64,000 nucleotides of DNA from Candidatus Woesearchaeota archaeon (lineage in GTDB: Archaea > Nanobdellota > Nanobdellia > Woesearchaeales > GW2011-AR4): assembly GCA_016181305.1 (NCBI GenBank), contig JACOZN010000010.1, positions 1 to 64,000 on the forward strand, in the 5' to 3' direction. Both the position numbers and the translations under genes were made by a program. The notes beneath the pieces were generated by a model. That model did not search any database and was not told the origin of the DNA. It worked only from the letters and a program-made list of their open reading frames with translations. Shown here piece by piece: positions 577 to 4,962 of this stretch. The stretch's first letter is position 1, and each line of letters starts with the position of its first letter.

Positions 577-1026
577 ATGATAAGGAACCAGACAAAAAAT
601 AAGATTATTGCAAGTGATGCAAAACTATGCAGTGATATTTTCTCAAAATCACTTGGCTTGATGTTCTCAAAACAATCAAAAATCGATAAACGATTTTTGG
701 TGCGAGAGAATTCAAAGAATTCTCTGCACACAAAATTCAAGAATTTTGTTGTGCCCAGAAATTCTAAAGAATTTCTCGGGAAGAAAAATAAGGCATTGAT
801 TTTCAAATTCGGCAGGGAAAAAATAATTGCTTTGCACATGGTTTTTGTATTCTACCCGATTGATGTCTTATTTCTAGACAAAAGCAAAATTGTAGTTGAT
901 ATAAAACAAAACTTCAAGCCATTTACATTCTATAAATCAGGGAGAAGGGCGATGTATGCTATAGAACTGCCGAATGGCGTTATTAAAAAAACAAGGACGG
1001 AGATTGGGGATCGAATTAAGTTTTGA
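577..1026 (+). CDS. DUF192 family protein carrying an in-frame palindromic insertion
   Basis: DUF192 motifs 'GLMF', 'LHMVFVFYPIDVLFLD' and 'YAIELPNG'. About 35 extra residues after GLMFSKQ correspond to a hairpin array. Confidence 0.85.
   Translation: MIRNQTKNKIIASDAKLCSDIFSKSLGLMFSKQSKIDKRFLVRENSKNSLHTKFKNFVVPRNSKEFLGKKNKALIFKFGREKIIALHMVFVFYPIDVLFLDKSKIVVDIKQNFKPFTFYKSGRRAMYAIELPNGVIKKTRTEIGDRIKF
677..780. mobile_element. Four-hairpin palindromic element inserted in frame in the DUF192 gene
   Basis: Stems: CAAAAATCG/CGATTTTTG (677-699), AGAGAATTC/GAATTCTCT (705-725), ACAAAATTC/GAATTTTGT (730-749), AGAAATTCT/AGAATTTCT (757-776). Confidence 0.7.
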
Positions 1027-1194: not shown

Positions 1195-1202
1195 TTTAAA
1201 TA
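1195..1202 (+). promoter_or_regulatory. Archaeal TATA box for the tRNA-Trp gene
   Basis: TTTAAATA 28-35 nt upstream of tRNA G1 (1230). Confidence 0.65.
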
Positions 1203-1244
1203 ACGACAATTAAAACTATATCTTATTTCGGGGACGTCGTATAA

Positions 1245-1261
1245 AGGAGCAATCCGTACAG
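1245..1261 (+). other. tRNA intron 1 (17 nt, position 15/16)
   Basis: Central helix GTAT(1239-42)/GTAC(1256-59), 3-nt bulges AA^A and AG^C, inner hairpin GGA-GCAA-TCC. Confidence 0.85.
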
Positions 1262-1285
1262 CCTGGCTATTATCACCGGCTCCAG

Positions 1286-1329
1286 CATTGGAGCGATGAG
1301 TCGCAAGACGATGAATTACTGAAGGTGAT
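1286..1329 (+). other. tRNA intron 2 (44 nt, canonical 37/38) with box C/D-like guide elements
   Basis: Relaxed BHB (CTCC/GGTG helix with one U-U mismatch). Contains TTGGAGC, antisense to the anticodon loop, followed by ATGA, then ACGATGA and CTGA. Confidence 0.85.
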
Positions 1330-1337
1330 ACCGGTGG

Positions 1338-1366
1338 ATTTTAGTAAGAAATTACTAAGAGCCGAA
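1338..1366 (+). other. tRNA intron 3 (29 nt, position 45/46, variable region)
   Basis: Central helix CGGT(1332-35)/GCCG(1361-64), bulges GG^A and AA^A, 9-bp inner stem with a GAAA tetraloop (1339-1360). Confidence 0.85.
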
Positions 1367-1379
1367 ATTAGGGTTCGAA

Positions 1380-1391
1380 ACAAAGCGAAAA
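1380..1391 (+). other. tRNA intron 4 (12 nt, position 59/60, T-loop)
   Basis: Central helix TTCG(1374-77)/CGAA(1386-89), bulges AA^A and AA^T, outer helix is the T-stem. Removal restores TTCGAAT. Confidence 0.85.
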
Positions 1392-1406
1392 TCCCTACGT
1401 CCCCAC

Positions 1407-2900
1407 TTATTTTTTCCTTCTGCCTATTTTTTCCAGAGCCCTAAACAGCGGCCTGTAGAATTCTATCAGCAGGATTATTGCCAAAGAAATCAAAATTCCA
1501 GTGATGAAATAAGGGTAATAATATTTTAGGATTTCTTTTGAGAATGGAAAATCAAACTTCCATGCTGAAAAAAACAGCAATGAAAAAACTGCAATTAATG
1601 AAATCAAAAACCATTTCAGGCTGAATTTTCTTGTTTTGAACTCTGGTTTTTTGGCTTCCTTTGCTTTCTGCCGGGCTTCCCTGGCAGCCTTCAAAGCCTT
1701 TAATCTTGCTTTTCTTACACGATAATTTTTATACGATGTTTTTATCTTATTTTTTATTTGCCGCCTGAGAATAAACAAAATGACTAAAACAAGCAATAAA
1801 ACATAAATATAGTATTGATAATAAACAAATAATGATTTTACATCTGCAAACTTATTTCTTTTCAAAACAACATCAATATTCTTTGAATACGCAATATCGC
1901 CAAAATTGGCATTTATCTTTATTGTATATGTTCCCTCCGGAACATCATTGCCGGGATTTAAATGCAAGTTTACGCCGCCATACTGCTGCGGGTTCACAGC
2001 AATTTCTTTGGCATCGACAGAAACCCAGTCAGGAGCTTCCAGACTGATTTTGTAGCCTGCCTGCCTGATTCCATCATTTTTTATTTTTATTAAAATGTAC
2101 TCTTCTGAATAATAATTTGTTATTTTTGAATCTGAAACAAAATCAGCCTTGTAGCAGCCGTATTTCGGCACAACCTCAATGGATAATTTTTTTTCCGATT
2201 TTATCGACGGCAGGCTTTTTATTGCGGCGCTTACAAACACGTCAAAAACGCCCTTTGCGCCTGCAGGAATATCCGCATTGAACTCAAATTTCCGACTTCC
2301 GCCCGCATCGATGGAATATTTATTTTCATCCATGCTTATCCAGTTAGGCCCCTGGATGCCAAGCTCAAACTCATTTTCCTCATTGCCCTCATTGGCAATT
2401 TTTCCTGTGTATTTTTTAACTGCACCGCCGCAAACCCTGTCATAGCCCTTTTCAAGCTCCAGGCTCAGTGAGTGGCATTTCTCGACGCTTACGTCAATGG
2501 CAAGGCTTCTTTCAATATTTCCAGCCAAAGAAGCGCCATTTACTTTTATGCTGTATTTACCTTCTGCATCACTGCCGGGATTTAAATTCAGGAATACAAC
2601 GCCGCTCTGCTTTTTTGGCAATGCAAATTCATTGGCATTCAGGCTTGCCCAGCCCGGGCCTGCAGCATCCAAAGAATACCTGCTGCCGATATTTGCCTTG
2701 TTTACAACCATTATCGGGATTGATTTTTCCTCATTCTGGCACATATTGTAAGTGCCGCTGTAAAGCTCAAAATCAATGCTTTTTTCGCCCTGCTTCAAGC
2801 CATAAAATTTTCCTGGGGATAATGAGAAGTCCTGCGCATAAGCCCGGCTAATCAAAAACAAGAATACGAAAAGCACCAGCATCTTTTTTATCTGATTCAT
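1407..2900 (-). CDS. Cell-surface protein with signal peptide, several NEW3/Ig-like domains and C-terminal TM helices
   Basis: Likely start is ATG 2900 (MNQIKKMLVLFVFLFLISRAYA) rather than 2978. Repeated 'I.N.G.....Y.L...GP.W.S' beta-sandwich motifs. Three hydrophobic C-terminal segments. Confidence 0.75.
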   Translation of the reverse strand: MNQIKKMLVLFVFLFLISRAYAQDFSLSPGKFYGLKQGEKSIDFELYSGTYNMCQNEEKSIPIMVVNKANIGSRYSLDAAGPGWASLNANEFALPKKQSGVVFLNLNPGSDAEGKYSIKVNGASLAGNIERSLAIDVSVEKCHSLSLELEKGYDRVCGGAVKKYTGKIANEGNEENEFELGIQGPNWISMDENKYSIDAGGSRKFEFNADIPAGAKGVFDVFVSAAIKSLPSIKSEKKLSIEVVPKYGCYKADFVSDSKITNYYSEEYILIKIKNDGIRQAGYKISLEAPDWVSVDAKEIAVNPQQYGGVNLHLNPGNDVPEGTYTIKINANFGDIAYSKNIDVVLKRNKFADVKSLFVYYQYYIYVLLLVLVILFILRRQIKNKIKTSYKNYRVRKARLKALKAAREARQKAKEAKKPEFKTRKFSLKWFLISLIAVFSLLFFSAWKFDFPFSKEILKYYYPYFITGILISLAIILLIEFYRPLFRALEKIGRRKK

Positions 2901-2919
2901 GAAATTAAATTTGACACAG

Positions 2920-4962
2920 TCAGTAATAAGCCTGCATTTCTTCCTGCGCTTCCTCTTCTGAACCGCTGCCCTGCACAAGCCTCTTGACGCCGAAAAATAA
3001 GGCTACTGCGACAAGCAAAACCACAAAGCCGATGAGCAGCACCCCAAGTATATTTTTTAGGTTGGCTGCCAACAGCCCTTTTCCCTCAACAACATTGGCT
3101 TTCAGCGGGATCTGCTTCAGCTCCCTGTCATTGCTTTTTATGGTTGCCACAAATATCTGCTCGCCTTTTGAAGCAGCTGTTGCGGAAGCATAAACATTAA
3201 TTGTTTTCGACTCTTTTGGCTCGAGCACAAATGTGTTTGAGTCTGAAAGCCTGAATCCTGCCCAGTCTCCGCCGTCAAGCAGCAGCGTGTAGGAATTTGC
3301 GTCAGGGCCATTGTTTGTAAGCATTATAGGGTATATAGCTTCGGTGCCGTCATTTTTCATGCTCTGCTTCAGCACCGGCACGTTGATTAAAAGCCTGTCA
3401 TTTACAATCTGCTTTTCCTGATCGCCTTTGCCGAGGATAAAAACAGGAATCTCCTTTACCTCGCTCTCGCTGCCGAACTGCGATGTTACCTCCGACCTCA
3501 AAGTATAAGTTCCAGTAGGCGTATTGTCAAGTATTTTCAGCACGAACTCCTCGCTTGCCTCTGTGCCAAATCCCTCTATGCTGTCTGCAAATTTTGAGGC
3601 TGAAACTCCAAGCTCGGGAATGCTTACTTTTACATTCACGCCGTCAAGAGGCACTACTCCGCTGTTCCTGAACCTTACCTTTGCAATAAGATTTTTGCCG
3701 GCCTCTGCATTGCTTTCAGGGCTCAATGAGATGCTGCTTATAACGAAAGGAAACCTTTTCTTGCTTATCTTCAGGCCATACACTTTCTCCTCTGAATCGC
3801 CTTCAGCGTCAACAACCCTGACTTTAAGCTTGAAGCTGTTCTGCTCAAAGCTGCCAATCAGCGGAAGCTCGAGCTTCTTGACTGTATTTTCGCCTTCAGA
3901 TATGTCAAAGACTGCTGTTGCATCAGCCACAACATCGCCGTTTTCAAAAGCCAGAACAGCGTCTATATGCGCGTCTTCGATGTCTTCAAGCGATGTCAGC
4001 CTTACCCTCAGGTCCAGCTCCTTCTTGCTTTCCCCTATGACTACAAAATTGTTCTCGTTTTCAGCAACAACCCTGCTTTCAACTTCCACACTGTCTACTG
4101 AAATGTCCAAATTCCTTGAACTGCCGCCACCTGAAACTCCATTGCCGTTGCCATCTTTCATCCTAAGTCCATAGACTTTCTGCACTGAATCTCCTTCAGC
4201 GTCTGCAATCCTTACAGCCAGCTCAAACGAGCTGCTGTCCTTAAGCTTGTCAAGCAGCTCAAGGCTAAGCAAAATCGAGGAGCTTGAATCCTGGCTCAAG
4301 TCAAAATTTGAAGAGGCGTCTGCAACAACATTGCCGCTTCTCAAGTCCTTCAAAATCGCCTCAACACGCGCGTCTTCCAAATCCTCAAGGGCTGTGAATT
4401 CAACCAAAACATCAAAATCATTGCTTTCTTCTATGAAATTGGTTCTTGACTCGGCAACAACCTTATTGTTTACAAATACCCTGTCTATTGAAACGTCAAG
4501 CCTGCCTCTTGTCCTTGTATCCCTTGTCTTTATCCCATAGGTTTTCTGCTCTGAATTTCCCCTGATGTCGACAATCTTTACAGTCAAGTCAAACTCGTCT
4601 TCCCTCTTAAGCCCGTCTGTAAGGACAAGGTTCAGCAATACAATGGAGTTTTGCCCTTCAAACATGTCAAAAGTGCCTGTTGCATCTGACACGACATCGC
4701 CGGACTGTCTCCCCCTCAAAACTGCTTCCACGTGCCCGTCGTCAAGCGCCCTCACGGCTGTAAACTCGGCTATGACTGAGAATGCGTTTGCATCATCCAT
4801 AAGGTTGCTTCTTGACTCTGTCACGACATTGCCATTGGCTGTAACCCTGTCAATTGACACGTCAAAGCCTGAAAAGCTTGATGTGCCTGCATAAGAAATA
4901 CCGCTAAATAAAGATGCAAAAACAAGCAATAATGCCGTTAAAGTGAATAGTTTTTTAGCCAT
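2920..4962 (-). CDS. Putative S-layer/surface protein: three ~115-aa tandem repeats, CARDB/NEW3-like domains, C-terminal TM anchor
   Basis: Signal peptide. Three repeats starting D(V/I)S(I/V)D(R/S)V and ending K(T/V)YG(I/L)(K/R), at about nt 4865-3770. C-terminal hydrophobic helix. Confidence 0.75.
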   Translation of the reverse strand: MAKKLFTLTALLLVFASLFSGISYAGTSSFSGFDVSIDRVTANGNVVTESRSNLMDDANAFSVIAEFTAVRALDDGHVEAVLRGRQSGDVVSDATGTFDMFEGQNSIVLLNLVLTDGLKREDEFDLTVKIVDIRGNSEQKTYGIKTRDTRTRGRLDVSIDRVFVNNKVVAESRTNFIEESNDFDVLVEFTALEDLEDARVEAILKDLRSGNVVADASSNFDLSQDSSSSILLSLELLDKLKDSSSFELAVRIADAEGDSVQKVYGLRMKDGNGNGVSGGGSSRNLDISVDSVEVESRVVAENENNFVVIGESKKELDLRVRLTSLEDIEDAHIDAVLAFENGDVVADATAVFDISEGENTVKKLELPLIGSFEQNSFKLKVRVVDAEGDSEEKVYGLKISKKRFPFVISSISLSPESNAEAGKNLIAKVRFRNSGVVPLDGVNVKVSIPELGVSASKFADSIEGFGTEASEEFVLKILDNTPTGTYTLRSEVTSQFGSESEVKEIPVFILGKGDQEKQIVNDRLLINVPVLKQSMKNDGTEAIYPIMLTNNGPDANSYTLLLDGGDWAGFRLSDSNTFVLEPKESKTINVYASATAASKGEQIFVATIKSNDRELKQIPLKANVVEGKGLLAANLKNILGVLLIGFVVLLVAVALFFGVKRLVQGSGSEEEAQEEMQAYY

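Follow-up and report, generated by a model that had tools for sequence, protein, structure and literature searches.

The DNA analysed here, called the window below, is a 64,000-nt stretch (forward strand) of contig JACOZN010000010.1 in assembly GCA_016181305.1 of Candidatus Woesearchaeota archaeon, and all coordinates refer to it. Positions 1230-1405 of its plus strand (176 nt) very probably hold a single functional transfer RNA (tRNA) gene, tRNA-Trp(CCA), interrupted by four introns of the endonuclease type, a reading obtained from genome sequence. The initial annotation had proposed that this 176-nt sequence becomes a tRNA-Trp once four segments are removed, and its coordinates, lengths and insertion positions proved exact: excision of the four segments (introns 1 to 4, Table 1) leaves a 74-nt product that ARAGORN calls as a full-length tRNA-Trp(CCA). 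The intron positions 15/16, 37/38, 45/46 and 59/60 are Sprinzl numbers and not linear coordinates; placing the cuts at linear coordinates yields a product (U37, variable loop AAAT) that ARAGORN accepts, but it misfits both the bulge-helix-bulge (BHB) geometry and the intron-less relatives and was rejected. The spliced tRNA has an acceptor stem with 7/7 base pairs, U8, A14, G18G19, A21 and the discriminator A73. Its anticodon stem is ACCGG/CCGGT with a C26-G44 pair, the loop CUCCAGA includes G37, the variable loop has 4 nt (GGAU) and the T arm reads TAGGG-TTCGAAT-CCCTA. The CCA end is not encoded in the gene.

A DNA search of 60 related genomes returned orthologous loci in 29 of them, giving 30 loci with the one in the window; 29 of the 30 (this locus and 28 others) were parsed by in-silico splicing, and L014 was dissected by hand. 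A survey of tRNA-Trp in relatives had been put forward as a check on the gene, and the exons indeed recur in the 29 other genomes, with covarying stems and variable introns. Each parsed locus yields a 73-75-nt tRNA-Trp(CCA) with an acceptor stem of 7/7 pairs. Archaeal tRNA-Trp is identified by the anticodon CCA, the discriminator A73, the G1-C72 pair and a class I variable loop, and these features hold in all 29 parsed loci. Nine complementary forms of the anticodon stem were found (e.g. ACCGG/CCGGT, GCCGG/CCGGC, TTCGG/CCGAA and GCTGG/CCAGC) and eight of the T stem (e.g. TAGGG/CCCTA, CAGAG/CTCTG and CGGCG/CGCCG), while the acceptor pairs 5:68 and 6:67 change jointly across loci. The number of introns varies among the parsed loci: 2 have a single intron (37/38 only), 13 have two, 6 have three and 8 have four. 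The four-intron group consists of this locus, L003-L008 and L010, that is, eight species-level genomes of one genus with a common layout.

For every one of the three non-canonical introns there is a relative that lacks it, with the exons meeting precisely where the junction was predicted. Intron 1 occurs in 19/30 loci, always with a fully paired central helix (4/4) and an inner helix of 3-7 bp, and is precisely absent in 11, in which exon 1 is joined directly to the CCTGG of exon 2. Intron 3 is present in 17 loci, all with a 4/4 central helix, and absent in 12 of the 29 parsed loci; loci without it read TGAT, GGAT or GAAT at positions 44-48, matching GG↓AT here (arrows mark cuts). At the 59/60 site, 15/29 parsed loci carry an intron, with 3-4/4 pairs in the central helix and the T stem as outer helix, and the uninterrupted sequence TTCRAAT stands in the other 14. 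Across loci the introns measure 17-32 nt (intron 1), 16-186 nt (intron 2), 24-30 nt (intron 3) and 12-100 nt (intron 4).

Two loci and their genomes deserve separate mention. L014 (G033:C78) apparently has four introns in a different layout within the same genus, at 15/16, 37/38, 53/54 and 59/60 and none at 45/46; its T loop is flanked by a 22-nt insertion at 53/54 (central helix 4/4) and a 29-nt insertion at 59/60 (3/4). L008 (G008:C166) has the anticodon-stem strand TTCGG, as in L016 and L030, against CCGGT, as here, resulting in a U27.U43 mismatch that a recombinant origin of the allele, a chimeric assembly or decay of this copy could explain. G008 and G021 each contain a second tRNA-Trp-like match on another contig.

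The splice sites were scored for a 4-bp central helix and two 3-nt bulges cut after the second bulge nucleotide, a geometry anchored on the canonical 37/38 case, in which the 5' exon and the intron each end in a central-helix strand followed by two bulge nucleotides. In intron 1 the central helix GTAT(1239-1242)/GTAC(1256-1259) is 4/4 paired, with bulges AA↓A and AG↓C, an inner helix of 3 bp (GGA/TCC) and a GCAA loop. In intron 2 the central helix CTCC/GGTG has a U33.U mismatch, and the anticodon stem serves as a 7-bp outer helix. Intron 3 has the central helix CGGT(1332-1335)/GCCG(1361-1364), 4/4, bulges GG↓A and AA↓A and a 9-bp inner helix with a GAAA loop; intron 4 has TTCG(1374-1377)/CGAA(1386-1389), 4/4, bulges AA↓A and AA↓T and the T stem (5 bp) as outer helix. 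Since in all four introns just one bulge of the two is closed on both sides, the motifs are relaxed (HBh' or hBH), and none is a full hBHBh'. The BHB geometry claimed for every segment thus stands as far as the presence of four motifs is concerned, and has to be amended in that these are relaxed forms and that the intron 2 central helix reaches 3/4 only.

A comparable motif is found at 0.42% of random cut pairs of the same lengths within the window versus 4/4 of the junctions, and the four motif-bearing junctions are those independently defined by the relatives. The fold of the product is less discriminating: exhaustive removal of BHB-like segments at the locus gave 146 full-length ARAGORN calls, 28 of them tRNA-Trp and the rest with other anticodons. 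A cloverleaf obtained by in-silico splicing is, by itself, not beyond chance and is weak evidence, and because 146 alternative splices pass ARAGORN, the case rests on the comparison with relatives.

Table 1. Features of the split tRNA-Trp gene, contents of its second intron, and the splicing endonuclease gene of the same genome.
Feature	Position	Strand	Basis or remark
TATA box TTTAAATA, archaeal promoter	1195-1202	+	centred ~31 nt upstream of tRNA position 1
Exon 1: positions 1-15 (acceptor 5' strand, U8, D-stem 5' strand, A14, A15)	1230-1244	+	ARAGORN and relatives
Intron 1, 17 nt, site 15/16, HBh' motif	1245-1261	+	geometry; precise absence in 11 loci
Exon 2: positions 16-37 (D loop, D-stem 3' strand, anticodon-stem 5' strand, C32-G37)	1262-1285	+	ARAGORN and relatives
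Anticodon CCA	1282-1284	+	within exon 2
Intron 2, 44 nt, canonical site 37/38, relaxed hBH motif	1286-1329	+	geometry and conserved inner element
Intron 2: antisense UGGAGC	1289-1294	+	sequence
Intron 2: spacer G	1295	+	sequence
Intron 2: D'-like AUGA	1296-1299	+	sequence
Intron 2: 3-bp stem with GCAA loop	1300-1309	+	sequence
Intron 2: C'-like GAUGA	1310-1314	+	sequence
Intron 2: 3' tail	1315-1329	+	sequence
Exon 3: positions 38-45 (A38, anticodon-stem 3' strand, G44, G45)	1330-1337	+	ARAGORN and relatives
Intron 3, 29 nt, site 45/46, HBh' motif	1338-1366	+	geometry; absence in relatives
Exon 4: positions 46-59 (variable loop end, T-stem 5' strand, T54-A59)	1367-1379	+	ARAGORN and relatives
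Intron 4, 12 nt, site 59/60, hBH motif	1380-1391	+	geometry; absence in relatives
Exon 5: positions 60-73 (U60, T-stem 3' strand, acceptor 3' strand, A73)	1392-1405	+	ARAGORN and relatives
T-run, likely archaeal transcription terminator	1410-1415	+	direct sequence reading
EndA	G000:C21:33477-33737; ORF L001:1474-2064	minus	only splicing endonuclease in the genome

The gene lies between the open reading frames (ORFs) 577-1026(+) and 1407-2978(-). The promoter motif aacaaYaatcTTTAAATAacg recurs at about -35 to -31 in ~25/30 of the orthologous loci, and T-rich tracts follow A73 in nearly all relatives. Rfam snoRNA-like matches at 1158-1239 and 1465-1549 fell below threshold and were treated as noise; the latter are weak matches to eukaryotic box C/D snoRNAs, with GTGATGA at ~1501, inside the 523-aa ORF 1407-2978(-), and are probably due to chance.

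It had been anticipated that standard finders would overlook the gene, and ARAGORN and Rfam are both silent at the locus: the intact gene gives no ARAGORN call, with or without intron mode, and no match to Rfam RF00005 at the gathering threshold or at E<=10. As a positive control, the single-intron orthologues L024 and L027 are called as tRNA-Trp by ARAGORN, and all loci with two or more introns are missed; Rfam gives no tRNA match even in the single-intron orthologues. A check for another tRNA-Trp, likewise suggested at the outset, found none in the 78%-complete assembly by tRNA finder or by BLAST with exon 2, whose sole 24-nt match in the genome is this locus; a loose structural scan for a second copy was dropped as non-specific. 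No paralogues of the four introns were found elsewhere in the genome, which comprises 1.07 Mb in 22 contigs with 41% G+C, and in which ARAGORN sees only four intron-less tRNAs. In a SPLITS-like census of the whole genome the anchor step returned 23 tRNA-like spans of 71-206 nt, and the combinatorial step left many alternative solutions per locus, so that no intron counts are given for other genes. Only two of the 23 spans (71 and 75 nt) are free of any insertion. At least six other tRNA-like genes, on contigs C1, C2, C16 and C19, carry a 59/60 T-loop insertion in which the TTCR/YGAA helix and the AAN↓T bulge recur (C1:63474-63612, C1:54714-54822, C2:6416-6621, C2:59321-59467, C16:8232-8323 and C19:98392-98485).

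In the pathway we propose, the gene's own TATA promoter would drive transcription of a ~180-nt precursor, the single EndA would cut the introns at 15/16, 37/38, 45/46 and 59/60 at their relaxed BHB motifs, and RtcB would join the five exons, with CCA added afterwards. The initial annotation had reasoned that the central helices borrow exon strands, so that splicing should be ordered, and the predicted folds agree with this. The central helix of intron 3 uses C40-U43, the anticodon-stem 3' strand, which is also part of the outer helix of the intron 2 motif, and the two motifs cannot coexist because both need C40-U43. A fold constrained to the motifs of introns 1, 3 and 4 reaches -61.0 kcal/mol, against a minimum free energy of -61.5, and a fold constrained to the intron 2 motif and the anticodon stem reaches -52.6 kcal/mol. 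In the predicted ground state the anticodon-stem 5' strand AUCACC pairs with the intron 2 tail GGUGAU, and the loop sequence CUCCA pairs with UGGAG; the RNAalifold consensus of the eight four-intron precursors contains the same helices. Although not universal, the pairing of the tail shows covariation in several relatives (AUCGCC/GGCGAU, UCUUC/GAAGA). These models suggest that intron 2 is removed after intron 3 and is likely the last of the four, with the motifs of introns 1, 3 and 4 presented together in the ground-state fold.

EndA is encoded by a single gene, as it is in the relatives, closed genomes included (one EndA, ~180-250 aa), which fits a homotetrameric alpha4 type. The protein has 196 aa with the N-terminal and catalytic domains PF02778 and PF01974. 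Its nearest counterparts come from Candidatus Woesearchaeota, Nanoarchaeota or Nanoarchaeia archaea, many of them from groundwater. Forms of EndA known to cut relaxed motifs are (alpha-beta)2, epsilon2 and the loop-bearing alpha4. The loop-bearing alpha4 EndA of DPANN archaea has been linked to tRNA gene disruption, and undetected disrupted tRNAs were predicted (PMC5829648). The RtcB ligase is encoded on contig C1; its match (G000:C1:23155-24485) is split, the first 50 profile positions being matched by a distinct piece further upstream that contains four stop codons.

Several observations weigh against a functional four-intron gene. The D stem of the spliced product is weak (G10.U25, U11-A24, A12-U23 and U13.U22, three pairs and one U.U), the central helix of intron 2 contains a mismatch, and its motif lies 8.9 kcal/mol above the ground state. 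EndA aligns gap-free with the strict-specificity alpha4 enzyme of M. jannaschii (query residues 32-196, 0.90 accuracy) and lacks the stretch of six additional residues found in the alpha subunit of N. equitans between the catalytic Tyr and His, so that its cleavage of one-sided motifs is assumed here. Such an enzyme would suit a gene with fewer true introns, in which segments such as the 45/46 hairpin or the 12 nt of the T loop are retained in the mature RNA as expansions, and the 45/46 segment is indeed a stable 9-bp hairpin resembling a class II variable arm. We consider this very unlikely, however: both segments sit in exact BHB geometry with 4/4 central helices and cuts after the second bulge nucleotide, relatives that precisely lack each segment have the sequence predicted to result from splicing, tRNA-Trp belongs to class I, and a T loop of 19 nt would destroy the T-loop/D-loop contacts. 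The 146 ARAGORN-acceptable products with several anticodons could also point to a decaying pseudogene, or to an artefact of cuts chosen to give a cloverleaf. To this we give the smallest chance of all, in view of the recurrence of these exons in 29 other genomes, where stem changes are compensated and acceptor stems fully paired, the four-intron layout kept in eight species-level genomes including this one, the conserved promoter, the single-intron orthologues called as tRNA-Trp by a standard finder, and the finding of no other tRNA-Trp in the genome. A real tRNA-Trp gene with four introns would account together for the exons in 29 relatives, the precise intron absences, the covarying stems, and the TATA promoter and T-run.

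Intron 2 contains a conserved element (Table 1), which is present in 29/30 loci as U-GGAG or U-GGAA, two variable nucleotides, (A/C)(U/C)GA, a 3-bp stem with a loop of 2-116 nt, and (G/A/U)AUGA. The stem covaries (pair 2 as U-A, C-G or G-C; pair 3 as C-G, U-A or A-U), and 65/69 stem cells are paired, a level matched by 0 of 2000 shuffles. The antisense stretch pairs with A36-C32, and with G31 as well in this gene, in a duplex of 4-6 bp (4 bp in the GGAA variants). The spacer from antisense to xUGA is exactly 2 nt in all 29 loci despite its varying sequence, so in every case the G facing C34 occupies the fifth position upstream of the D'-like box. In box C/D ribonucleoproteins the fifth nucleotide upstream of box D/D' specifies 2'-O-methylation. 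A D'/C'-like pair, made of xUGA, the covarying 3-bp stem and (G/A/U)AUGA, is found in 29/30 loci, and the element looks like a kink-turn (K-turn), in which the stem would be the canonical helix, GAU the bulge, and the two GA would form the tandem G.A/A.G. Fibrillarin and Nop5 genes are adjacent on contig C9, and L7Ae is encoded in 20/20 relatives searched.

Variation within intron 2 was observed at two places. Inserts of 116, 44 and 35 nt occupy the loop of the K-turn-like stem in L009 (G020:C36), L025 (G029:C1) and L021 (G001:C1), bringing the intron to as much as 186 nt with the xUGA and GAUGA boxes intact, and the loop looks like a tolerated insertion site. In L007, L008, L009 and L020 the antisense is separated from the 5' splice site by a conserved insert of ~31 nt, CGAATGCAACTTnAAAGTTGCTCGCGTG, a hairpin of 6-7 bp; this insert was considered as a nested BHB intron and rejected, as no convincing motif was seen.

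From its sequence and register, the element is slightly favoured to be a reduced cis-acting guide for the 2'-O-methylation of C34 (Cm34). Several points tell against a guide. A terminal pair of box C (RUGAUGA) and box D (CUGA) was not found, only 3-4 nt preceding the antisense, and the CUGA at 1319-1322 here is CUAA in close relatives. The antisense to the anticodon loop spans 4-6 bp, versus ~8-12 nt in box C/D guides; L019 has a 16-nt intron 2 without the element, and L7Ae was not found in this 78%-complete assembly. No second guide for position 39, as a complementary stretch and D box downstream of GAUGA, was found either. Formation of a C box by circularisation of intron 2 (GUGAU joined to CA, beside CUGA) was considered and rejected, as neither element is conserved in relatives. 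As it has neither a terminal C/D pair nor a second guide, and its one guide is shorter than normal, the element is not filed in the euryarchaeal family; it is classed as working like a reduced guide and not as a member of the box C/D family.

The same short antisense and missing parts would suit an element that guides no methylation, whether a structural module (K-turn or hairpin with an anticodon-loop decoy) shaping the precursor or a relic of a full box C/D RNA, and we give this a sizeable chance, somewhat below even. It also has on its side the predicted ground state, in which the element and the tail (GGUGAU/AUCACC) sequester the anticodon loop and the stem 5' strand and free C40-U43. It leaves aside, however, that the 2-nt spacer is fixed in 29 loci with C34 always in the N+5 register, that fibrillarin and Nop5 are encoded, and that the intron guide of euryarchaeal tRNA-Trp is known to produce Cm34 (PMC11408192, PMC4090602). 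Guide and scaffold might be combined: the antisense would hold the anticodon loop and the 3' tail the anticodon-stem 5' strand, freeing C40-U43 for the 45/46 splice motif. In its fullest and rather doubtful form, the 37/38 intron would be a minimal single-K-turn box C/D 'half-mer' acting in cis, both guiding Cm34 and serving as a folding scaffold, so that methylation would be coupled to the last splicing step and the cut order fixed under a plain alpha4-type endonuclease.

Four introns in one tRNA gene had been regarded as exceptional, a view that is outdated. According to reviews, archaeal tRNA genes have no more than three introns each (PMC4033280, PMC8450103). The four found here exceed that number, yet they are not unprecedented: the tRNA-Trp(CCA) of Atabeyarchaeia (Asgard) has three introns by tRNAscan and four observed (PMC11291895, Supplementary Data 4; Valentin-Alvarado 2024), and as many as five intervening sequences in a single Asgard tRNA gene are reported in a preprint of 2026 (10.64898/2026.10.13.758758). 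The Asgard genes resemble this locus in that four-intron genes include tRNA-Trp(CCA), annotation overlooks introns of the D arm and different genes have few intron families in common. They belong to a different superphylum with an L1-loop EndA (PMC5829648), however, and the comparison covers intron counts, annotation and intron families. In the multi-intron tRNAs of Thermoproteales and ARMAN-2 (Sugahara 2007/2008; PMC4033280, PMC8450103), as proposed here, the motif of one intron becomes available only once another intron is gone, and those genes too are missed by standard finders. They have up to three introns whereas four are found here, and they are served by (alpha-beta)2 or epsilon2 enzymes, in contrast to the single alpha-type EndA of this Woesearchaeota genome; Thermoproteales moreover have transposing intron families, unlike this genome with its lack of intron paralogues. 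The closest likeness in splicing order is the three-intron tRNA-Ile of Cyanidioschyzon merolae (PMC3728597), with introns in the D arm, at 37/38 and in the T loop, where the flanking introns are removed before the canonical one, as the models suggest here; there, in a eukaryotic nucleus, the order was shown experimentally, whereas here it is inferred from folding.

For intron 2, the comparison is with the euryarchaeal tRNA-Trp intron, which, in the accounts of Clouet d'Orval 2001 and Singh 2004 as relayed by PMC11408192, PMC4090602 and PMC7994747, nests a box C/D RNA guiding Cm34 and the 2'-O-methylation of U39 (Um39). The tRNA, the 37/38 site, the C34 target by the N+5 rule and a K-turn-like motif of GAUGA and xUGA are the same as here. 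The euryarchaeal intron, with a median of ~65 nt, has C/D'/C'/D boxes and guides for C34 and U39, whereas intron 2 here has 44 nt, one box pair, one antisense of 4-6 nt, no terminal C/D and no position-39 guide.

None of these findings overturns current understanding. If the reduced guide is real, it would extend to DPANN, in a much smaller form, the euryarchaeal arrangement in which an intron guides the Cm34 of its own tRNA. A question posed by the locus is how one small EndA resembling the strict M. jannaschii type handles one-sided motifs, and the locus can be used to ask whether the fold of a precursor encodes its splicing order. Since its fixed sites hold between one and four introns in different members of one genus, it also forms a natural allele series for intron gain and loss. 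Altogether, Woesearchaeota genomes appear tRNA-poor through genes fragmented beyond the reach of standard finders, which bears on their annotation and on estimates of their completeness.

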